Shown here: piece by piece, positions 28,289-39,709 of the stretch
Layout of the letters: every line of letters starts with the position of its first letter
Numbering within the stretch: position 1 is the stretch's first letter
From: an uncultured Poribacteria bacterium
Lineage (GTDB): Bacteria > Poribacteria > WGA-4E > WGA-3G
Assembly (NCBI GenBank): GCA_951813565.1
Contig: OX638351.1
Location: 1,568,001 to 1,632,000 of the forward strand
Direction of reading: 5' to 3'
Length of the DNA stretch: 64,000 nucleotides
Program-made: the position numbers and the translations under genes
The notes under the pieces: generated by a model
What the model was told of the DNA's origin: nothing
Databases searched by the model: none
Seen by the model: only the letters and a program-made list of their open reading frames with translations

Positions 28289-28822
28289 ATGACAGAAGAA
28301 AAATTTCTTGAACTGGTACGAAAACATCAAGATCAAATTTTTCGGCATGCCTTTTATATACTCAAAAACAGTGAAGACGCAAAGGATATGACACAGGAAA
28401 CCTTTATCAAGGCATGGCAACATCGCGCAGATTTAAGACCGGAAACTGTTCACTCGTGGTTACTAAAATGCGTACAGAACTTATGTTTTAACCAACTAAA
28501 ACGCCAAAAATTTCAGGTGTATTTATCCGAAGAAAATGGCGAAACGCTTGAAATGCTACTGCATTCACATTCATACCAGTCAAATCCGTCACCAGATGAG
28601 ATTTCTATCAAACAGGAACTCAAACAATTAGTGCGTCAAGCGATTAGAGAATTACCACCAATCATGCAATCAGTGATAATCATGCGGGAATTAGAAGAAA
28701 TGAGCTACAAGGAAATCGCAAAGGTCTTAAAACAACCTGAAAACACCGTCAAATCAACCGTATTTCGTGCTCGCAAGAAATTGCGGAAGATTTTGAACCG
28801 TTTAATGGAGACACAAGTATGA
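28289..28822 (+). CDS. ECF RNA polymerase sigma factor (stand-alone)
   Basis: DAKDMTQETFIKAW (region 2); MSYKEIA...TVKSTVFRARKKLR (region 4). Confidence 0.93.
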   Translation: MTEEKFLELVRKHQDQIFRHAFYILKNSEDAKDMTQETFIKAWQHRADLRPETVHSWLLKCVQNLCFNQLKRQKFQVYLSEENGETLEMLLHSHSYQSNPSPDEISIKQELKQLVRQAIRELPPIMQSVIIMRELEEMSYKEIAKVLKQPENTVKSTVFRARKKLRKILNRLMETQV

Positions 28823-29625
28823 AACCGACAATCATGATTCTTGGCAGCGGACACTTAGCGAATCCTGGAGGAGACAGATTCAATTTCAGAATGGATGATG
28901 TGCTTGCACCAAAACGTCAACGCGAGGCCCAACAACTGGTGGCGCAACTCAAACCGTTTCGTCCTACCAAAATAGCCATTCAAGCAGACGAAAGGTTTGA
29001 CGCTGAGATTAATGCAAACTACCAAGGTTACTTGGAAGGCACTTATGAACTCAAGCGTGGAGAAGCTAACCAGATTGGGTTTAGGTTAGCTAAGCAGATG
29101 GGACATTCGAAGGTATACTGCGTTGATTATTTCCCTGAGAAAGACCCGTTTTTTCTGGAGAATTTTGACTGGGATTTGATAAATGTTGATAAATTCGCAA
29201 TGGAACACAATCAAGAGCATCTACTACCAAAAGTAGAGGATTTCATTACTCCCGATGAGAAAACCCACCAAGAAGAAGACGGCAGAGTCTGGATTGAAGC
29301 AAAAAAATATGAATCTCTCATTGAGATGTACATACGGTGTAATGAACCTGAAGGAAGACGCGCCGACCATCAGGTATACTTACGCATGTCACAAATTGGC
29401 GTAGACAATCAATACACCGGAGCGAATTGGGTTGGGAATTTCTGGTACCCACGAAATCTCAAAGTTTTTGTCAACCTAACACGCATCACTGAATCTGCTG
29501 ATGACAGGATTATGTTGATTATCGGCGCTGGACGTGTCTTTCTATTACAGCAGTTTCTTGAAGATTCAGGGGACTACATCGTTGAAAACCCATTAAAATA
29601 CCTAAAAATGGAGGATGTCAATTAA
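28819..29625 (+). CDS. DUF5694-like protein, copy 1 (two conserved residues substituted)
   Basis: LGSGHLANP, DDVLAPKRQ, PTKIAIQ, WYPRNLK, GAGRV; ATGA overlap with the sigma gene. Confidence 0.8.
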   Translation: MKPTIMILGSGHLANPGGDRFNFRMDDVLAPKRQREAQQLVAQLKPFRPTKIAIQADERFDAEINANYQGYLEGTYELKRGEANQIGFRLAKQMGHSKVYCVDYFPEKDPFFLENFDWDLINVDKFAMEHNQEHLLPKVEDFITPDEKTHQEEDGRVWIEAKKYESLIEMYIRCNEPEGRRADHQVYLRMSQIGVDNQYTGANWVGNFWYPRNLKVFVNLTRITESADDRIMLIIGAGRVFLLQQFLEDSGDYIVENPLKYLKMEDVN

Positions 29626-30446
29626 TGAAAAATAAAAACAAACCAACAATCATGATTCTCGGCAGTGGACACTTAGCAAATCCCGGTGCGGACGCATACA
29701 ATTTCAGAATGGATGATGTCCTCGCACCAAAACGGCAAAGCGAAATTGAACAATTGGTGGCACTACTCAAACCGTTTCGTCCTACCAAAATAGCACTTGA
29801 GGCAGATGAAAGGTTTGATTCTGAGGTCAATGCAAACTATCAAGGCTATCTGGGAGACACTTACGAACTTGAACGGGGTGAAGGCGACCAGATCGGATTC
29901 CGGTTGGCAAAACAGATGGGACATCCGAAGATATACTGCGTTGATTATTTCCCCGAGAAAGACCCGTTTTTCCCGGAAGACTTTGACTCGAATTTGATGG
30001 ATATTGACAAGTTTGCAAAGGAACATAATCAAGAAGACCTCCTACCAAGTGTAGAGGATTTTTTTGCTGATTCTGACGTGGAATTCCGTGAAGAGGAAGA
30101 TGGCAGAGTCTGGATTGAACCCCTGAAATACAAATCACTCATTGATATGTACATACAAGGCAATGAACCTGAAGGAAGACGTGCTGAACATCAGCTATAC
30201 TTACAAATGGCACAAGTTGGATTGAAGGATCAGTACCCAGGAGCAAATTGGGTAGGGCATAGCTGGTATACTCGTAATCTCAAAATCTTTGTGAACCTGA
30301 CGCGCATCACCGAATCTGCCGATGATTGTATTTTGTTGATTATCGGCGGTGGGCATGTCTATCTGGTCCAGCATTTTCTTGAGGCATCGGGAAATTATAT
30401 TGTTGAAAACCCACTAAAATATCTGCAATCGGAGGATGTCAATTAA
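29625..30446 (+). CDS. DUF5694-like protein, copy 2
   Basis: LGSGHLANP, PTKIALE, WYTRNLK, GGGHV; TAATG coupling. Confidence 0.82.
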   Translation: MKNKNKPTIMILGSGHLANPGADAYNFRMDDVLAPKRQSEIEQLVALLKPFRPTKIALEADERFDSEVNANYQGYLGDTYELERGEGDQIGFRLAKQMGHPKIYCVDYFPEKDPFFPEDFDSNLMDIDKFAKEHNQEDLLPSVEDFFADSDVEFREEEDGRVWIEPLKYKSLIDMYIQGNEPEGRRAEHQLYLQMAQVGLKDQYPGANWVGHSWYTRNLKIFVNLTRITESADDCILLIIGGGHVYLVQHFLEASGNYIVENPLKYLQSEDVN

Positions 30447-31267
30447 TGAAACATAAAACTAAGCCAACAATCATGATTCTCGGCAGCGGACACTTAGCAA
30501 ATCCTGGCATGGACGCATACAATTTCAAAATGGACGATGTGCTTGCGCCAAAACGCCAGCGCGAAATAGAACAACTCGTGACACTACTCAAACCGTTTCG
30601 TCCTACCAAAATAGCCCTTGAGGCAGATGAAAGGTTTATGTCTGAAATTAATGCGAACTACCAAGGTTATCTGGAAGGCACATACAAACTCAAGCGTGGA
30701 GAAGGTGACCAGATTGGGTTTAGATTAGCTAAGCAGATGGGACATCAGAAGTTGTACGGTGTTGATTATTGGCCAAAGCATAACCCGTTTTTTCCAGAAG
30801 ATTTTGACTCGGATTTGACGGATGCTGACAAATTCGCAAAAGAACACAATCAAGAACACTTGTTGTCAAGCATTGAGGACTATTATCCTGATACCGACGT
30901 GGAATTCCATGAGGAGGATGATGGCAGAGTCTGGATTGTACCTACGAAATACGAATCACTCATAGACATGTACATACGTGGTAACGAACCTGAAGGCAGG
31001 CGCGCCGACCATCAGTTATACCTGCGGGGTGCACGGGTTGGTTTAGGCGATCAATACCCTGGAGCGAATTGGCTTGCGCATTTTTGGTATGCCCGTAATC
31101 TCAAAATTTTTGTCAATCTGACGCGCATCACCGAATCTGAAGATGATCGGATATTGTTAATTATCGGTGGCGGACATGTCTTTTTGGTACAGCAGTTTCT
31201 TGAAGATTCAGGGGACTACATCGTTGAAAGTCCACTAAAATACTTGAAATCAGAGGATGCTAATTGA
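30446..31267 (+). CDS. DUF5694-like protein, copy 3
   Basis: LGSGHLANP, PTKIALE, WYARNLK, GGGHV; TAATG coupling. Confidence 0.82.
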   Translation: MKHKTKPTIMILGSGHLANPGMDAYNFKMDDVLAPKRQREIEQLVTLLKPFRPTKIALEADERFMSEINANYQGYLEGTYKLKRGEGDQIGFRLAKQMGHQKLYGVDYWPKHNPFFPEDFDSDLTDADKFAKEHNQEHLLSSIEDYYPDTDVEFHEEDDGRVWIVPTKYESLIDMYIRGNEPEGRRADHQLYLRGARVGLGDQYPGANWLAHFWYARNLKIFVNLTRITESEDDRILLIIGGGHVFLVQQFLEDSGDYIVESPLKYLKSEDAN

Positions 31268-31375
31268 TGAAATAACTGAAATTCAAAATGGAAAATTTTA
31301 AATTCCCAAGTAATTTTGCTTTTTTTAAACCCCCTTCCAAAAAAGCACACTCTTTAGGTTAAATCTAATTGGGAA

Positions 31376-32596
31376 ATGTTTATGCGATACGATCTATCAA
31401 CGTACACGGATCTGACAGATGAGGAACTCATCCGGTTTGCACAAATCGGTGATGAGTCAGCATTGACAGAACTGATGCTGCGTTATAGTCCACGCATCTG
31501 GAAAGTGATTACCGCAAATTCGAGACAACGCCGCGATGCTGAAGAAATTCTCATGGACATCTGGCGATCTGTTTGGGAAAACATCAGCGGACTGCGAAAC
31601 GTTGAGAGTTTTGGTGGATGGCTACACCGCATTGCTTACAACGCCTGCAAGAGGTACTACGCTTCTCGTCACCATTCAAAGGATGAAATTCCGTGCAATG
31701 ATGCATACTTAACCGATCACATTGATCGGAACGCAGTTGCACGTTTCCGAGAAACAGAACTTCGTGAGGCAGTAGCTGAGGCAGTACATCAACTTCCAGA
31801 TAGAGTGCGCCGCGTCGCGGAGTTATACTATCTGGAATTGTGGAGTGTCAAAGAGATCCATGCAGAACTCGGATTAGCGATAGGAACAATCAAAACCAAA
31901 TTAAGACAGACACGTGAACTCCTGCGTAAGGAGTTCGGTGTCGAACCTGAAGGAGTTAGAACAATGTCATCTAAACGAAAAGAATCCAAACGCATCCGAA
32001 CCAAAACCAAAGTTATCGGTGTCGGTGGCGCGGGAGGTAATGCTGTCAAACGAATGGTCGGAGCAGGTTTGGCAGACATTGAATTTTACGTTGTGAATAC
32101 AGATCAACAAGCACTCGAAAAATGTGACAATGCAACGCCAGTACAGATCGGTGTTAACACCACGCAAGGGCTTGGTTGTGGAGCAAATCCAGAGATAGGC
32201 AAGAGAGCAGCTGAGGAAGACAGAGAAACGCTCCAGAACATTGTTGGGGACGCGGATATTGTCTTCATCACTGCTGGCATGGGTGGTGGAACAGGAACAG
32301 GTGCTGCACCCCTGATTGCATCTCTTGCACGGGAACAAGGTGCTTTAACTGTAGGTATTGTCACTTGTCCGTTTAATTTTGAGGGAGAACGGCGCGCCGA
32401 ACGCGCAGAAGAAGGACTGCAGGAACTTCGTGACAATGCTGATTCTGTTCTTGTACTGCCAAACCAACGACTTCTTGATACGGTGGAGCGGCCATTGAAA
32501 GTACCCGAGGCGTTTCGTCTCAGTGATGAAATGCTGCTCCACGGTGTTGCAAGTATTTCGGAATTTCATTCCAGCACCACACACAGAGACACTTAG
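31376..32596 (+). CDS. ECF sigma factor fused to an FtsZ N-terminal GTPase domain
   Basis: aa 1-190: sigma regions 2 and 4 (DAEEILMDIW, SVKEI...GTIKTKL); aa ~207-395: VIGVGGAGGNAV, NTD, GANPEIG, GMGGGTGTG, PFNFEG.RR; ends before the NxDFAD loop. Confidence 0.92.
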   Translation: MFMRYDLSTYTDLTDEELIRFAQIGDESALTELMLRYSPRIWKVITANSRQRRDAEEILMDIWRSVWENISGLRNVESFGGWLHRIAYNACKRYYASRHHSKDEIPCNDAYLTDHIDRNAVARFRETELREAVAEAVHQLPDRVRRVAELYYLELWSVKEIHAELGLAIGTIKTKLRQTRELLRKEFGVEPEGVRTMSSKRKESKRIRTKTKVIGVGGAGGNAVKRMVGAGLADIEFYVVNTDQQALEKCDNATPVQIGVNTTQGLGCGANPEIGKRAAEEDRETLQNIVGDADIVFITAGMGGGTGTGAAPLIASLAREQGALTVGIVTCPFNFEGERRAERAEEGLQELRDNADSVLVLPNQRLLDTVERPLKVPEAFRLSDEMLLHGVASISEFHSSTTHRDT

Positions 32597-32753
32597 TTTT
32601 ATATTCAGTGCAAGAAAATAAAAGAAGTACTGTCTCACTACCTCTTAAGAGTATACGTCTCTATAAGGTAGAGACAAACCCCAACACATCTATCGTCATG
32701 AGTTTGCACATATAGTTCGTGTTAGGGTTTAACCTTTCAGTAGAAACGTTCTA

Positions 32754-32786
32754 ATGAAGATTAAGAAACCACTTCTTAATCTTCAT
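32754..32786. other. perfect 14-bp stem-loop between sigma-FtsZ and the DUF5916-like gene
   Basis: ATGAAGATTAAGAA-ACCAC-TTCTTAATCTTCAT; no U-tract. Confidence 0.7.
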
Positions 32787-32837
32787 CGCATTACAGAGTT
32801 GGTATCTTGAAACCCTAAAAATGGAGAAACCTAATTG

Positions 32838-34847
32838 ATGAAATCACAGATAATTTATGGAATAATTTTACTCATTACACTATCGCTTATATCAATCACA
32901 AACTCACAAACTGTACAAGCGCAAGACACACAGACCGTTAAAAAAGAACTCACCGCAATCAAAACCGAACAACCACCAACTATTGATGGTATTCTTAATG
33001 ATGTCTGCTGGCAAGATGCACCGAAAGCTGCCGGTTTCACTGATGAACGCACCGAACAACCGGCAAAAAATCAATCTGCTGGTCGCCTTGTCTATACAGA
33101 CAAAGCCATCTACGTTGGACTTCACCTCTACGACGATATGCCCGACAAAATTGTAGCGCGCCAAACCAAAGATCAGACGCGATTCCAAGGTGAAGACTGG
33201 GTATCCTTTAGCCTTGACACATTTCACACGCACCAGTTTTCTGACAGAAGCTTCTTCCTCGTAAATCCACTCGGCACGAAATTCGCGCATCTTGCCACCG
33301 GGCGTGCTGAAAAAAGCGAATGGATCGGACTCTGGAAAACTGCAGCACAAATTGTGGATAACGGCTGGATTGTAGAGATGGAAATCCCATGGCAGATGTT
33401 GGATTACCCAGACACAACCAAACCTGTTCGGATGGGGATTAACATTGATCGCGGGCAGCAGCGAACCGGGGAAAAATCGTGGTGGTGTAATTTAGGCGTT
33501 AACGAATTTCGGGAAAACGATGGACACTGGGTTGATGTGCTTCCACCACGCCGAAAACGTGAACTAAAGTTGCTCCCGTATCTAATTGGCGGCATCAGCG
33601 AAACGGAAACTTCTGTAGGAGCGACCTCCGAGTCGCGATGGGAATATACTGCCCGTGCAGGCGGCGACATACGTTATGAGGTTACGCCACAAATACGACT
33701 CATCGGTGCTGCCAATCCAGATTTTGATAACATTGAACAGGCAGTAGAAGGCATTGATTTCTCTTACGGCGAACGCTACGTCCCTGACCGCCGCCCTTTC
33801 TTTTCCGAAGGAGGAAATGTCTATAGACTTGGAAATTCCTTTCATTCGCGGCGGATAGCAGATATGGATGGAGGGCTAAAACTCTTTGGAAAAGTAGCAA
33901 AAAATACTTCTGTAAGCACCTTAGGCACCTATCATCGAAACAATCAGAACTTTATTGTCCGTGTCTCACAGTCTCTAACGGCGACATCTAACATAAATGC
34001 AGCGTTCTTGTCCCACCATCACCGTGACACTGGATTGAACAATGTAGGTTATCTTTCCGGAGATGTACGCCACGGTAAATTTTCAGTAGGTTCTAATCTC
34101 GTGCAAACTTGGACAGGCGAATCGGACGGAAGGAATGGGTTTGTCAGTTTAGGCTACAACGGACCGATTTTCCAACCCTATCTGTCCGCATTTTTTGTGG
34201 ATCCGGATTTCGTCAATAGACTCGGTTACCGTCCATTCACCGGCTACCGCGGCATAGGTTTGGGTAGTTTCATTAAGAATGAATGGCGCGAAGGATTCTT
34301 CCGCAGAGCATCCGCTTCTGTCCAAAGCCAAATCTCTAACACTTATGAAGGCGAGGTTTTCCGGCGTGACCTGTCCATATCTTCACTTATCCTAACACAT
34401 AGCGACTATGCACTTGCCGCTGGCTGGAGGGGCGGGCAATTTGAAGAATTCAGCGATAGCGTTTTCAGTATTGGATTACGTGCGCGTGCTTCTGACAGGT
34501 TCAATAATGTTGGCATTACCTACAATTGGGGTGAACAAGCAGGTGAGACGATTCATCGTATTAGTGGAAATCTTAACTTGCGTGCTTATGGCTTCACTGC
34601 GGGGCTCTCCTCTCAAATCCAATGGCATTTTGAACGGCGCTACCTACAGATTCTTACCCTCACGTACGACTTCAGTCCCGCCTTAAGTCTCGGCAGTCGT
34701 TTAATATGGCAAGCAGAGCATGTTAATGTATATTTCGCATTGCGCCGTTCTGGCTATGCTGGCATGGACTTCTTTATCATCCTCGGCGACCCAAATGCTT
34801 TGGAATTCAAGCAACGTCTTGTAGCAAAAGTGATTCGGGCATTTTAA
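32838..34847 (+). CDS. DUF5916-like protein (CBM9-like domain plus probable outer-membrane beta-barrel), copy 1
   Basis: Signal peptide, PPTIDGILND..W, W.VEMEIPW, NPDFDNIE, RRPFFSEG, C-terminal Phe. Confidence 0.78.
   Translation: MKSQIIYGIILLITLSLISITNSQTVQAQDTQTVKKELTAIKTEQPPTIDGILNDVCWQDAPKAAGFTDERTEQPAKNQSAGRLVYTDKAIYVGLHLYDDMPDKIVARQTKDQTRFQGEDWVSFSLDTFHTHQFSDRSFFLVNPLGTKFAHLATGRAEKSEWIGLWKTAAQIVDNGWIVEMEIPWQMLDYPDTTKPVRMGINIDRGQQRTGEKSWWCNLGVNEFRENDGHWVDVLPPRRKRELKLLPYLIGGISETETSVGATSESRWEYTARAGGDIRYEVTPQIRLIGAANPDFDNIEQAVEGIDFSYGERYVPDRRPFFSEGGNVYRLGNSFHSRRIADMDGGLKLFGKVAKNTSVSTLGTYHRNNQNFIVRVSQSLTATSNINAAFLSHHHRDTGLNNVGYLSGDVRHGKFSVGSNLVQTWTGESDGRNGFVSLGYNGPIFQPYLSAFFVDPDFVNRLGYRPFTGYRGIGLGSFIKNEWREGFFRRASASVQSQISNTYEGEVFRRDLSISSLILTHSDYALAAGWRGGQFEEFSDSVFSIGLRARASDRFNNVGITYNWGEQAGETIHRISGNLNLRAYGFTAGLSSQIQWHFERRYLQILTLTYDFSPALSLGSRLIWQAEHVNVYFALRRSGYAGMDFFIILGDPNALEFKQRLVAKVIRAF
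33615..33638 (+). repeat. GTAG REP-like hairpin inside coding sequence
   Basis: GTAGGA-GCGAC-CTCCGA-GTCGC-GA, translated as VGATSESR. Confidence 0.6.
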
Positions 34848-35101: not shown

Positions 35102-36811
35102 GTGGAAAGAGAAGATGATGTTCAACTAATTCGTAAAATCTTATCGGGCGACGACGCTGCGTTTGGCATCTTGGTCGAAAAGTATCAAAAAAGCATTCAT
35201 GACCTTGCATGGCGGAAGATTCACGATTTTCACTATGCGGAAGAGATTATGCAAGACACCTTCCTTAAGGCATACAGAAAACTTCCGACACTCAAGAATC
35301 ACAATCAATTTGCTGGGTGGATCCATGTCATCGCAAATCGACTTTGCATTGATTGGGTACGAAAGCAAAAGCCTGTGATGCAGTCCTTAGAAAACATACG
35401 TCAGGAAGAAATCGAGAAATCCTCTTATACACACCATATATCGGAACAACGGGGAACAGAGAGAGTTGAGTATTGCCATGAGCTTGTGCAAAAGCTTTTG
35501 GAAAAACTGCCAGAAAATGAACGCACGGTCGTAACGCTCTACTATCTTGACGAAATGTCAACGAAAGAGATCGGCGAATTCATGGGAGTGTCAGTGAATA
35601 CAATTACGAGCCGACTCCAACGCGCTCGAAAACGTCTACAAACAGATCAGGAACTCTTGGATCAAGAATTCTTTGGTCATTTACAATTACCCGAAAATCT
35701 GAAGGAGAATATCATGAGTCAATTAGAAGAAATTCGCCACAAGTTCAATTCATTCATGGAAAAAGTGAAATTTGACCCCGCATCAAGAGAGAATATACTT
35801 AAAGAAGCAGACAGCGAAATTGATGCTGCGCTCAAGGGTGAAATCACACCTGAGTTGGCGCATCTTGTTGTTGATGATATATACCCACACATGGGTAAGC
35901 ACGGAATAGAAAAACGTCTCTCTCTTCTACATAAGTTCTTGGATGACGCACCAGATAATAAAGAACGTTTTTGGGCACATCAAAAGTTAGCTTCAAGCCT
36001 TGCATTTCTTGGGAGACACCGAGAATCAGTAGAGGAACAATTGCAACTTTACCGATGGGCATGCAAAAACGACATCCCAGATAAGGATGTATTACATATT
36101 TTCTGTTCTAATCTTGAGAACCCAGCATCTTGGTCTGCAGAAGGTCGAATTTATGAATGGATTAAACTATATCATGAGGCATCGGAACGTCTAATAAAAC
36201 CTGATGTAAGTTATCTTGACCGCTGCGAATTTCTACAAATCGGTGCAGAAGTGCTTCGAGCAAACGGAAAATCGGATGAGGCATTAATTGAACTCGAAAA
36301 GTTGGAAAAAACGAATACTAAACAGGATTGGAGACACTATTTTCGATTTTGGTTAGTTGTGAAAACAAATCGTTTGTTACTGTGTAACAGACGGAATGAA
36401 TCGGAACGTTTTGATGAAATCATAACGGAACTCAAGAGCTATATGGAAGGTGAGTATAAGAAATATAATGCGGGGCAACCCGTAAATACTGGTGATCTCA
36501 TCTGGCTTTCTCACGACATCGGCTGTTGTCTGGTGTGGATAAATAAGTACAGTATAGCAAGAAGTTTTTTACAAGTCGCTTGTGATTTGGGAGGTGAGAA
36601 TCACTATGGACACTTCATGCTCGCTGTAAGTATCTGGGCATCAGATAAGGACCGTGAGAAAACTCTACATCATCTCAAGATTGCTGAGGAAGACTATGCT
36701 GTAGCTTCCTACAATTTTCGTGATAGTTACTACTCATCTTTCGTTAATACACCTGAATTTTCGGATGTAAAAGATGATCCAGAGTTTCTGAAAGTTCTGG
36801 GACAGAAGTAG
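35102..36811 (+). CDS. ECF sigma factor with a long helical/TPR-like C-terminal extension
   Basis: GDDAAFGILVEKYQ, AEEIMQDTFLKAY, STKEIGEFMGVSVNTITSRLQRAR; helical tail ending PEFSDVKDDPEF. Confidence 0.88.
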   Translation: MEREDDVQLIRKILSGDDAAFGILVEKYQKSIHDLAWRKIHDFHYAEEIMQDTFLKAYRKLPTLKNHNQFAGWIHVIANRLCIDWVRKQKPVMQSLENIRQEEIEKSSYTHHISEQRGTERVEYCHELVQKLLEKLPENERTVVTLYYLDEMSTKEIGEFMGVSVNTITSRLQRARKRLQTDQELLDQEFFGHLQLPENLKENIMSQLEEIRHKFNSFMEKVKFDPASRENILKEADSEIDAALKGEITPELAHLVVDDIYPHMGKHGIEKRLSLLHKFLDDAPDNKERFWAHQKLASSLAFLGRHRESVEEQLQLYRWACKNDIPDKDVLHIFCSNLENPASWSAEGRIYEWIKLYHEASERLIKPDVSYLDRCEFLQIGAEVLRANGKSDEALIELEKLEKTNTKQDWRHYFRFWLVVKTNRLLLCNRRNESERFDEIITELKSYMEGEYKKYNAGQPVNTGDLIWLSHDIGCCLVWINKYSIARSFLQVACDLGGENHYGHFMLAVSIWASDKDREKTLHHLKIAEEDYAVASYNFRDSYYSSFVNTPEFSDVKDDPEFLKVLGQK

Positions 36812-37671: not shown

Positions 37672-37699
37672 AATATCTAAAGACGGAGGATGCTAATTG

Positions 37700-39709
37700 A
37701 TGAATCTACAAAAAATTTATGCGATAGTGTTGCTCATCACACTATCTCTCATTTTAATCATAAACGGACAGACCGCAGAGGCACAGAACACACAAACTGT
37801 CCAAAAAGAACTCTCCGCAGTCAAAACCGAGCAACCCCCTACCATTGATGGTATACTCAACGATGCTTGCTGGCAAAACACACCGCAAGCTATCAGTTTC
37901 ACCGACCAACGCACCGAAAAACCTGCTAAGAATCAATCTGTCGGCAGGGTTGTTTACACCGACGAAGCTATCTACGTTGGGCTTCACCTTTATGATGATA
38001 TGCCTGATAAAATCGTGGCGCGCCAAACCAAAGATCAAACCGGAATCGGTGGAGAGGACTGGGTATCTTTCACTATTGATCCATTTCACACACATCAATA
38101 TTCTGATAGGAATTTCTTCATCGTAAATCCACTCGGCACGAAATTCGCACATCTCGCCACAGGACGTGCTGCAAAAAGCGAATGGATCGGACTGTGGAAA
38201 GCTGCATCCCAGATTGTCCAAGACGGTTGGGTTGTAGAGATGCAAATCCCATGGCAGATACTGGATTATCCCGACACAACAGAACCTGTTCGAATGGGAA
38301 TCAACCTTGACAGATTCCAACAACGCACTGGAGAACGTTCATGGTGGTGTAATTTAGGTGTTCAAGAATTCCGAGAAAACGATGGGCATTGGATTGATGT
38401 GCTACCACCACCACGAAAACGTGTACTAAAGTTTTTACCCTATCTGATTAGCGGTATCAGCGAAACGGAAACTTCTGTAGGAGCGGCCTCCGAGTCGCGA
38501 CGAGAATATACTGCCCGCGCGGGAGCGGACCTACGCTATGAAGTTACGCCACAACTCCGTCTTATCGGTACAGCCAATCCCGATTTTGATAACATTGAAC
38601 AGTCTGTCGAAGGCATTGATTTTTCTTACAGTGAACGCTTCGTATCGGATCGCCGTCCTTTCTTTTCGGAGGGCGGCAATGTTTATCGTCTCGGTCGCCT
38701 GTTCCATTCGCGGCGGATAGTGGATATGGACGGCGGGCTTAAACTCTTTGGCAAACTCGGGAAAAACACCTCTGTCGGCACTTTAGGCACGTATCATCGG
38801 AACAACCAGAACGTTATTCTTCAAGCCTCACAATCACTTACAGCGACATCCAATATCAGCGCGGCGTTCCTTTCGCATCATCACCGTGACACTGGATTGA
38901 ACAATGTAGGTTCTCTTTCCGGAGATGCACGCTACGGTAAGTTTTCAGGGCGTTCTCGTTTCGTTCAAAGTTGGGACGGCGAATCGAACGGAAGGGATGG
39001 GTTCGTCAATGTAGTCTACAACGGATCGCTCTTTCAACATGCCCTGACCGCGTTTTTTGTGGATTCAGATTTCGTCGACAGACTCGGATACTATCCATTT
39101 ACGGGTTATCGCAGTGTAAATTTAGCGAGTTATTTCGTTAACGAATGGCGTGAAGGATTTTTCCGCAGAGCATCCGCTTCCATCCAAAGCCAAATCTCTA
39201 ATACTTACGAAGGCGAGGTCTTTCGGCGTGCTCTCAATGTATCTTCACTGATCCTAACACATAGCGATTATGCGCTTGCCGCTGGCTGGAGGGGCGGGCA
39301 ATTTGAAGAATTCAGCGATAGTGTTTTCAGCATCGGATTCCGGGCGCGTGCTTCTGACAGGTTCAATAATGTCGGTATTACCTACAATTGGGGTGAACAG
39401 GCAGGCGAACGGATTCATCGTATCAGCGGAAATCTAAATCTCCGCGCCTACGGTTTCACCGCAGGACTCTCCTCCAATATCCAATGGCATTTTGAAAGAC
39501 GCTACCAACAGATTCTAACCTTCGGCTATGATTTCAGTCCCGCCTTAAGCCTCGGTAGTCGTTTAATCTGGCAAGTAGAAGGTATTAATACCTACTTCAC
39601 ATTACGCCGCTCCGGGTATGCTGGCACCGACTTCTTTATCATCCTCGGCGACCCAAACGCCTCAGAATTCAAACAACGTTTAATAGCAAAAGTTATCCGA
39701 GCATTTTAG
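37700..39709 (+). CDS. DUF5916-like protein, copy 2
   Basis: Colinear paralog of 32838-34847 with the same length. Confidence 0.78.
   Translation: MNLQKIYAIVLLITLSLILIINGQTAEAQNTQTVQKELSAVKTEQPPTIDGILNDACWQNTPQAISFTDQRTEKPAKNQSVGRVVYTDEAIYVGLHLYDDMPDKIVARQTKDQTGIGGEDWVSFTIDPFHTHQYSDRNFFIVNPLGTKFAHLATGRAAKSEWIGLWKAASQIVQDGWVVEMQIPWQILDYPDTTEPVRMGINLDRFQQRTGERSWWCNLGVQEFRENDGHWIDVLPPPRKRVLKFLPYLISGISETETSVGAASESRREYTARAGADLRYEVTPQLRLIGTANPDFDNIEQSVEGIDFSYSERFVSDRRPFFSEGGNVYRLGRLFHSRRIVDMDGGLKLFGKLGKNTSVGTLGTYHRNNQNVILQASQSLTATSNISAAFLSHHHRDTGLNNVGSLSGDARYGKFSGRSRFVQSWDGESNGRDGFVNVVYNGSLFQHALTAFFVDSDFVDRLGYYPFTGYRSVNLASYFVNEWREGFFRRASASIQSQISNTYEGEVFRRALNVSSLILTHSDYALAAGWRGGQFEEFSDSVFSIGFRARASDRFNNVGITYNWGEQAGERIHRISGNLNLRAYGFTAGLSSNIQWHFERRYQQILTFGYDFSPALSLGSRLIWQVEGINTYFTLRRSGYAGTDFFIILGDPNASEFKQRLIAKVIRAF
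38477..38500 (+). repeat. GTAG REP-like hairpin inside coding sequence (paralogous site)
   Basis: GTAGGAGCGGCCTCCGAGTCGCGA. Confidence 0.6.

Follow-up and report, generated by a model that had tools for sequence, protein, structure and literature searches.

A conserved fusion of an ECF sigma factor to the GTP-binding half of FtsZ in one family of uncultured Poribacteria

We report a bioinformatics analysis of a gene from an uncultured Poribacteria bacterium in which an extracytoplasmic function (ECF) sigma factor is joined, in a single open frame of 406 codons, to the GTP-binding domain of the cell division protein FtsZ. The gene lies at positions 31376-32596 of the forward strand of a 64,000-nucleotide stretch of contig OX638351.1 (contig positions 1,568,001 to 1,632,000), and this whole stretch is referred to here as the window. 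The fusion is a real and conserved gene of one family of uncultured sponge bacteria within the Poribacteria. An earlier reading, made from the sequence alone, had described the uninterrupted 406-residue frame, and both the frame itself and Pfam matches to its two halves bear this out.

The fusion gene and its locus

The features of the gene and its upstream region are as follows.

31323..31356, forward strand: ECF-type promoter-like element, TAAACC (31326-31331), an 18-nucleotide spacer and CTCTTTA (31350-31356); proposed self-promoter of the sigma subfamily.
31376..32596, forward strand: ECF sigma-FtsZ(N-domain) fusion gene, 406 amino acids (aa), starting at Met1 (31376) or Met3 (31382).
31475..31669, forward strand: sigma region 2, residues 34-98 (PF04542, E 6.2e-8, above cut-off).
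31766..31921, forward strand: sigma region 4 helix-turn-helix, residues 131-182 (PF08281, Sigma70_r4_2, E 1.8e-7, above cut-off).
31950..31966, forward strand: internal ribosome-binding site (31950-31956) and ATG of Met197 (31964-31966); predicted second start, giving a free 210-aa FtsZ fragment.
31964..32596, forward strand: FtsZ GTP-binding domain with helix H7 (PF00091, Tubulin, at residues 211-370, E 3.8e-47).
32282..32302, forward strand: tubulin signature loop GGGTGTG, residues 303-309, by direct reading.
32369..32395, forward strand: T5 loop PFNFEG..R, in which F335 is the equivalent of Staphylococcus aureus F138, a top-face filament contact.

The sigma half consists of regions 2 and 4, the domain content of an ECF (group 4) factor, with no match to region 3 in the protein. 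Its match to TIGR02937 scores 70 bits against a cut-off of 42.9, and no NCBIfam subfamily cut-off is reached among the 25 of 58 families listed. The positions of regions 2.2-2.4 are mostly 90-100% conserved across 69 copies of the gene, and the nearest solved relatives of this part are ECF factors of the AlgU, RpoE and SigW type. The FtsZ half carries GVGGAGGN (residues 215-222), NTD (241-243), GGGTGTG (303-309) and PFNFEG.RR (332-340); it is about 50% identical to solved FtsZs, the chains of which are its top Foldseek matches, and 71% identical over 188 positions to the FtsZ of its own genome.

No FtsZ_C domain was found in the 406-aa protein by Pfam search, of the 353 positions in the TIGR00065 ftsZ profile the match takes in 9-205 alone (260 bits, below the cut-off of 295) and the protein ends 22 residues past the H7 aspartate, D384, at a place where the host FtsZ continues into NVDFAD. 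The T7 loop, the C-terminal domain and the C-terminal anchor tail are all missing. When host FtsZ residues 200-340 were searched by tblastn, nothing matched near the stop (the lowest E value across the window was 0.73), and the same residues are unmatched in the 1.5 kb downstream of 69/69 homologous loci. The sequence-only reading was therefore right that the domain ends after H7, just before NxDFAD, and does not continue in another frame.

It was right also that the gene stands outside any division and cell-wall (dcw) cluster. The genome, 5.43 Mb in one contig, holds three Tubulin-domain genes, namely canonical ftsZ, the fusion and a 1435-aa sigma-FtsZ-DnaE protein; the first of these (C1:3610810-3612156) lies about 2 Mb away in an apparent mraY-murD-ftsW-murG-murC-ftsQ-ftsA-ftsZ cluster, the gene names being read from translations. 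Neighbours of the fusion in the window are three DUF5694 genes, a short ECF sigma and CBM9/DUF5916 proteins, and across 61 fusion loci they are CBM9/DUF5916 proteins, another extended sigma and ABC-type proteins, not dcw genes.

An assembly chimera or sequencing error is suggested by the odd architecture alone. Assembled contigs (not raw reads) from three DNA-type studies cross both the junction and the stop without a gap (31879-33000, 31902-33000 and 31922-32781), differing from the window by 3, 1 and 1 letters respectively. With these bridging contigs, 120 homologous proteins and 65 closed loci from named Poribacteria genomes, we reject a chimera, the probability of which is negligible. RNA data came from a single poly(A) run, in which three small contigs, canonical ftsZ among them, matched the FtsZ half and none the sigma; they are uninterpretable, and a sigma-70 promoter and terminator scan gave results at chance level.

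Several neighbouring genes deserve mention in their own right. Directly upstream of the fusion, at 28289-31267 of the window, a short ECF sigma overlaps three tandem DUF5694 paralogues, and DUF5694 genes lie near the fusion in 15/61 loci. Paralogous secreted CBM9/DUF5916 proteins (window 32835-34847 and 37697-39709) are found at 45/61 fusion loci and an extended sigma of 569 aa (window 35102-36811) at 38/61, which makes these the commonest neighbours.

Distribution, origin and selection of the fusion

The 120 best homologues of the fusion share 73-98% identity with it, are 399-443 aa long and have an identical domain set, and those that are named come from Candidatus Poribacteria. The sigma subfamily itself (E 1e-40) is present in 104/111 other genomes of the window's family vs 0/64 genomes of other Poribacteria families. 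In a survey of loci, 80 were kept of 150 matched: 67 sigma-FtsZN (hereafter N-type), 11 sigma-WD40 and 2 sigma-FtsZ-DnaE (F-type). The N-type loci are closed and in frame in 65 cases, while one is cut by a contig end and one (L096) is frameshifted; these two copies are excluded from all counts. The surface-residue counts that follow refer to 72 N-type and 22 F-type copies, and the figures for selection, ribosome binding and phylogeny to sets of 69 and 19. Two further kinds of gene enter the comparisons.

C1:3818096-3822403 (L146:6097-10404), forward strand: F-type paralogue of the window's genome, 1435 aa, subfamily sigma with a full FtsZ core and a DnaE core.
L264, L265, L266, L083:7563-8195 and L262: stand-alone FtsZ N-domain genes that outlasted the sigma and are under purifying selection.

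Among the best 150 of 1.84 billion representatives, four matches with both domains were found, and three of them belong to the same sigma subfamily. In the fourth, P0258 (456 aa), the ECF sigma is unrelated and the attached FtsZ N-domain gives way to unrelated sequence at the T7 loop; it is possibly an independent fusion or a frameshifted gene. More than one Tubulin match occurs in 8/64 genomes outside the family, with no sigma fusion among the 4 examined. Other unusual tubulin-like proteins were also seen: in L261 (G006), a frame of 633 aa, a divergent tubulin-like domain precedes an apparent HD-GYP domain, as read from the translation, and P0246, P0254, P0262 and P0265 (730-840 aa) each have two Tubulin and two FtsZ_C stretches and are tandem FtsZs.

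When the N-domains of 137 sequences are placed in a FastTree phylogeny, those of the N-type and F-type proteins group together as a single clade with support of 0.996, to which the canonical FtsZ of the family is sister (0.93), and the two types have G188S in common. From the tree placement and this shared substitution, the FtsZ half is a duplicate of the host gene, made within the family and then cut. The cut is not recent: the T7 loop is missing from 72/72 aligned N-type copies, on which ground a late truncation of full-length homologues is rejected, and the stop falls 15-24 residues past the H7 aspartate in 65/69 copies, so that the truncation point is itself conserved.

Selection was assessed by the ratio of non-synonymous to synonymous substitutions (dN/dS), calculated pairwise by the Nei-Gojobori method for 69 loci from pairs with dS of 0.1-1, which are not independent of one another. 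The sigma gave 0.147, the linker 0.61 and the FtsZ half 0.179, vs 0.046 for the canonical N-domain. The FtsZ half is under purifying selection, and the neutral evolution that the sequence-only reading had named as grounds for dismissing the domain is not what we find.

These data bear on whether the FtsZ half, left over from a sigma-FtsZ-DnaE ancestor and kept mainly as a stable fold, is a passenger or a duplicate in slow decay. The dN/dS four times that of canonical FtsZ would fit such a history, as would the readiness of the lineage to fuse sigmas to downstream genes: about 30 of the 52 sigma-region-2 frames in the window's genome have long C-terminal extensions, many being near 1000 aa with a hydrophobic helix after region 4. 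The distribution speaks on both sides. When Tubulin minus FtsZ_C domain matches are counted per genome, an N-only copy is found in up to 83/112 family genomes, an upper estimate since 2/5 genomes checked had no N-only gene; by genus, again as upper estimates, the copy occurs in 61/65 genomes of the largest genus and 22/40 of the window's genus, where it was not seen in the other 18, and in 0/7 of four small genera. Against decay stand the dN/dS of 0.18 (at dS near 0.7), the constant end point, surface residues that do not vary, selection on stand-alone copies and presence in up to 61/65 genomes of the largest genus, and we consider this explanation improbable.

FtsZ surfaces, a probable internal start, a candidate promoter and a proposed function

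The residues of S. aureus FtsZ were placed on the host FtsZ by a constant offset of +2, at which all seven letters agree; no alignment with S. aureus FtsZ lies behind this mapping. A set of 12 nucleotide-core residues, chosen by us on the basis of FtsZ structure, is complete in 69/72 N-type copies, and the window's copy retains this core together with every mapped top-face residue (N241, D243, Q245, T263, G269, F335 and R340). F335 is found in 72/72 N-type copies, E336 in 72/72 and R340 in 64/72. The equivalents of T66 and F138 are both present in 71/72 N-type vs 9/22 F-type copies; in S. aureus both residues belong to the top interface and lie clear of the nucleotide, and their mutation blocks polymerisation (PMC5414002, in part). 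Of the 127 positions fixed in canonical FtsZ only 40 stay 98% fixed in the N-type, and these two are among them. The FtsZ motifs, described as intact in the sequence-only reading, are so in the window's copy but not family-wide: the signature loop keeps its G-G-T-G in 70/72 copies, its second (last) threonine has become alanine in 56/72, and some copies have a shortened T3 loop, discussed below.

FtsZ's two domains fold independently (PMC7327170, in part). An AlphaFold2 model of the 210-aa piece, built from an alignment rich in full-length FtsZ, has a mean per-residue confidence (pLDDT) of 90, a predicted template-modelling score (pTM) of 0.86 and an intact H7. The full 406-aa protein gave a pTM of 0.44, uninformative on domain packing, and a prediction of the sigma (10-190) in complex with FtsZN (207-400) and GTP scored 0.00, which is evidence neither way.

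The F-type paralogues are a mirror image of the N-type, with the T7 catalytic aspartate in 22/22 copies and the T3 glycine in 0/22. The 1435-aa example in the window's genome has a degenerate FtsZ top face and a DnaE core of PHP, catalytic, finger and helix-hairpin-helix parts with no match to an oligonucleotide-binding (OB) fold, and adjoins a separate dnaE; frames of about 1350-1450 aa recur in many relatives. It may be asked whether the two types are private partners, the T7 loop of the sigma-FtsZ-DnaE paralogue completing the GTP pocket of FtsZN to make a sigma-sigma heterodimer GTPase switch. The complementary faces, the common clade with its shared G188S and the 65/112 genomes that appear to hold both types would suit such a pair. 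Against it, domain counts indicate 18 genomes with the N-type and no extra FtsZ_C copy and 25 with the reverse, and although drafts are incomplete, several single-contig genomes are among them; the switch is very improbable.

Judging by its ribosome-binding signals, the fusion gene probably also makes the free FtsZ half, from Met197. The ATG is found in 68/69 copies, with a one-codon shift in the remaining one, and this within the fast-evolving linker. Predicted pairing of the bases upstream of the junction ATG with the genome's own anti-Shine-Dalgarno (anti-SD) sequence has a mean of -8.0 kcal/mol and reaches at least -4.5 in strength in 69/69 copies, compared with -1.3 for 1022 other in-frame ATGs and a mean of -4.7 for the sigma starts; in the window's copy it is -8.7 at Met197 vs +1.7 and -4.2 at the sigma starts. 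The observed junction codons pair more strongly than synonymous recodings in 68/69 copies. The most telling evidence comes from natural variants: in three genomes (G086, G090 and G092) the FtsZ half stands alone at a syntenic site after a DUF5694 gene, beginning at the junction ATG; upstream lies a decayed remnant of the last codons of the sigma, and neither a subfamily sigma nor the promoter motif is present. These stand-alone halves have a dN/dS of 0.23-0.26. Another genome, G093, holds an extra sigma-less stand-alone copy, which makes four genomes with a stand-alone gene starting at this ATG, and the copy of G103 is frameshifted. All the stand-alone copies nest within the N-type clade. A nested start of this kind, by which one gene would yield both the cargo joined to its sigma and the cargo by itself, seems to be general in the lineage.

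ECF sigmas often read their own promoter. A TAAACC block lies upstream of 81/82 subfamily genes examined, with the 18-nucleotide spacing in 70, and from this we propose TAAACC-N18-CTCTTTA as the candidate self-promoter of the subfamily; the sharing of the motif could be explained in part by inheritance through duplication. In the window's genome the four best matrix sites are those of three subfamily genes and one ABC (ATP-binding cassette) permease site, and at a score of >=23 there are 4 sites vs 0-1 in three shuffles. Among exact motif sites in five other genomes, 11/14 directly precede subfamily sigmas, and no site was found in 5/5 genomes lacking the subfamily. No motif was found upstream of ftsZ/dcw or dnaE among the 16 matrix matches in the window's genome, and control of these genes by the sigma is accordingly rejected.

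Three observations on these sites stand apart. The permease site, at C1:2184966(+) (L205), is a strong motif copy before a split MacB-like ABC permease, beside an IS1595-family transposase. The third subfamily member of the window's genome, C1:3454035-3454982(-) (L147), has a short extension resembling the start of another sigma or a helix-turn-helix. Between promoter and start, a near-palindromic short motif occurs as 2-3 repeats in some F-type genes (L172, L192 and L188) and once in the window (31362-31373), and could be an operator or part of a ribosome site.

The reading that we favour, tentatively and at somewhat less than an even chance, is that the gene is a self-promoting cassette for a natural dominant-negative FtsZ, which, having only its top face, would cap filaments at the end where they grow. 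In FtsZ that end is the one with the T7 face exposed; an incoming subunit binds by its top face, with GTP bound, and subunits with a defective bottom face are toxic (PMC8936486, in part). Since the top face of FtsZN is conserved, its bottom face is missing and monomers add by the top face, FtsZN is a predicted growing-end terminator; by its sequence, the window's copy has the intact top face and absent bottom face of a capper. Some signal would activate the sigma, which would transcribe its own gene and yield a little sigma-FtsZN and, through the stronger internal start, more free FtsZN. This, with GTP bound, would dock on the exposed T7 face of host FtsZ and, offering no T7 face and having no membrane-anchor tail, would cap the growing end or sequester monomers. 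The result would be slowed division, an inducible brake. A secondary feedback on the sigma may arise from tethering of the long form to FtsZ.

The sequence-only reading had proposed that the domain binds GTP, cannot self-polymerise and may cap filaments, all of which fits the conservation of nucleotide core and top face, and also that it couples the state of GTP or FtsZ directly to transcription. This latter part is weakened by the start signal of the FtsZ half, by selection after sigma loss, by the other cargoes of the subfamily (WD40, DnaE and DnaN) and by the roughly 30 of 52 extended sigmas; direct sensing is less supported than the cassette. In its fullest form the sensor would be a one-component one, the domain reading GTP/GDP or free T7 ends and switching the sigma in cis, as SnoaL or TPR extensions do in ECF41 and ECF42. 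The nucleotide core does persist in 69/72 copies while the catalytic contacts relax, the fusion is in frame at 65/67 N-type loci and no conserved anti-sigma gene was found beside it across 61 loci, ECF extensions usually replacing anti-sigmas (PMC7826278 and PMC8999054, both in part). However, the domain persists without a sigma in four genomes, the linker evolves fast, the sigmas of the subfamily swap cargo freely and the invariance of the T66 and F138 equivalents would be unnecessary for a sensor of GTP alone. We judge it unlikely.

The range of cargoes raises a further alternative, an integrated decoy, for which the integrated domains of plant immune receptors offer an analogy. The copies carried by the subfamily (FtsZ halves, DnaE, DnaN) would be non-functional versions of essential targets. 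An anti-FtsZ antibiotic, toxin or phage protein would bind the FtsZ copy and turn the sigma on, and more decoy would then soak up the inhibitor. One subfamily carries FtsZ-N, full FtsZ, FtsZ-DnaE, the PHP part of DnaE, a DnaN-like clamp and WD40, and in its favour all but the last of these can be cited: each such cargo is a second copy of a gene still intact in the host (ftsZ, dnaE), the N-type and F-type FtsZs keep complementary faces and the apparent regulon barely exceeds the subfamily itself. An intact top face should, though, still poison filaments, no inhibitor has been identified, the most numerous cargo, WD40 repeats, is no copy of a housekeeping gene, and sigma-less copies cannot signal. 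The decoy is thus rather unlikely. Related architectures were seen beside these: P0252, P0250 and L186 join a subfamily sigma either to a clamp resembling DnaN or straight to a PHP domain, L208:4929-7007(-) in genome G066 encodes a 693-aa protein with a complete DNA polymerase III beta clamp (DnaN) and an FtsZ core but no sigma, and the two sister genomes of G066 have FtsZ_C matches in 631- and 710-aa frames.

A number of results weigh against the capping cassette. The T3 loop is one residue short in 28/72 N-type copies, and the cross-talk set (equivalents of S. aureus N44, D46, Q48, G72 and R143) is complete in only 44/72 vs 27/27 canonical FtsZs; as D46A impairs filament formation by S. aureus FtsZ (PMC8936486, in part), many orthologues may dock weakly. 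With an alignment of fusions only, deeper in sigma sequences, AlphaFold2 gave H6-H7 a pLDDT of 34-42. No upstream signal that activates the sigma was found. As to the internal start, recoded junctions still average -6.1 kcal/mol, a modest margin, with a median of 21% of recodings equally strong, and 22/28 long sigmas scored in the window's genome have an SD-like ATG after region 4, so the nested start looks like a habit of the lineage and may partly reflect lysine, glutamate and glycine codons. The three syntenic stand-alone copies are close kin that have lost the R143 equivalent and have a remodelled T3.

The cassette may also be one part of something larger, a layer of cell-cycle control in which one ECF subfamily carries disabled copies of division and replication proteins (a top-only FtsZ, a bottom-only FtsZ with shortened DnaE, and DnaN), each in a sigma-tethered and a free form, the sigma being held at the Z-ring or replisome, or set free from it, and afterwards amplifying caps or decoys for both filament ends. 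This is conceivable, if doubtful. Were it true, the cytoskeleton would be wired directly to transcription and the cells would have a checkpoint independent of LexA; and if the cassette brakes division, it is a clue to growth restraint or to an anti-FtsZ response in a widespread uncultured sponge symbiont. The nested start, if general, would alter the reading of roughly 30 extended sigmas per genome.

Comparison with known systems

No published description of a sigma-FtsZ fusion or of the F-type fusions was found in a literature search that reached few subscription journals. FtsZ, tubulin and Poribacteria have 0 mentions in the main text of PMC7826278, as have FtsZ and GTP in that of PMC8999054. 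Like the ECF sigmas with extensions described in these papers (both in part), the fusion has a core of regions 2 and 4, a fused extra domain and no conserved nearby anti-sigma gene. It differs from them in that its cargo is half of a host-derived cytoskeletal GTPase with its own start signal, able to exist alone, and its extension is PF00091 only, with none of the SnoaL, TPR, WD40 or Cys-rich extensions of ECF41, 42, 57 and 238. The sigma-FtsZN protein is apparently an undescribed variant of extended ECF sigma, fitting no described extension group by cargo, and would make a new cargo class for such extensions; the weight of this is tempered by the habit of the lineage of extending its sigmas and by restriction to one uncultured family.

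With cell-division FtsZ (TIGR00065; S. aureus 5xdv, 3vo8 and 7ohk) the fusion shares the N-terminal GTP-binding fold and H7. It falls below the equivalog cut-off and evolves some four times faster, and, lacking T7, the C-terminal domain, the tail and any dcw surroundings, cannot be counted as a division FtsZ. The F-type sigma-FtsZ(-DnaE) proteins have the same sigma subfamily, promoter motif and junction start, and a sister FtsZ clade, but keep the C-terminal domain and T7 and have a degenerate top face.

Division inhibitors of the SulA type, which belong to the SOS response, are LexA-controlled, and no LexA link was found for the fusion. LexA is present in 0/40 genomes of the window's genus vs 63/65 of the sister genus in which the fusion is commonest. 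Because it is so frequent where the fusion is richest, the fusion is not an SOS stand-in, and replacement of the SOS system is rejected; nor, by eye, are the motifs of the fusion visible upstream of 12 lexA genes.

The closest parallels in action, as predicted for the fusion, are engineered bottom-interface FtsZ mutants and MciZ of Bacillus subtilis, which act at the bottom, growing end of the filament: MciZ caps filaments and the mutants are toxic (PMC8936486, in part, citing Du 2018 and Redick 2005). MciZ, however, is an unrelated peptide, whereas the would-be capper here is a natural FtsZ fragment under its own sigma. The FtsZ half of the fusion would be the conserved natural counterpart of a laboratory construct, an FtsZ able to add to a filament but not to be extended, and as an evolved protein it offers a test of filament polarity and capping.

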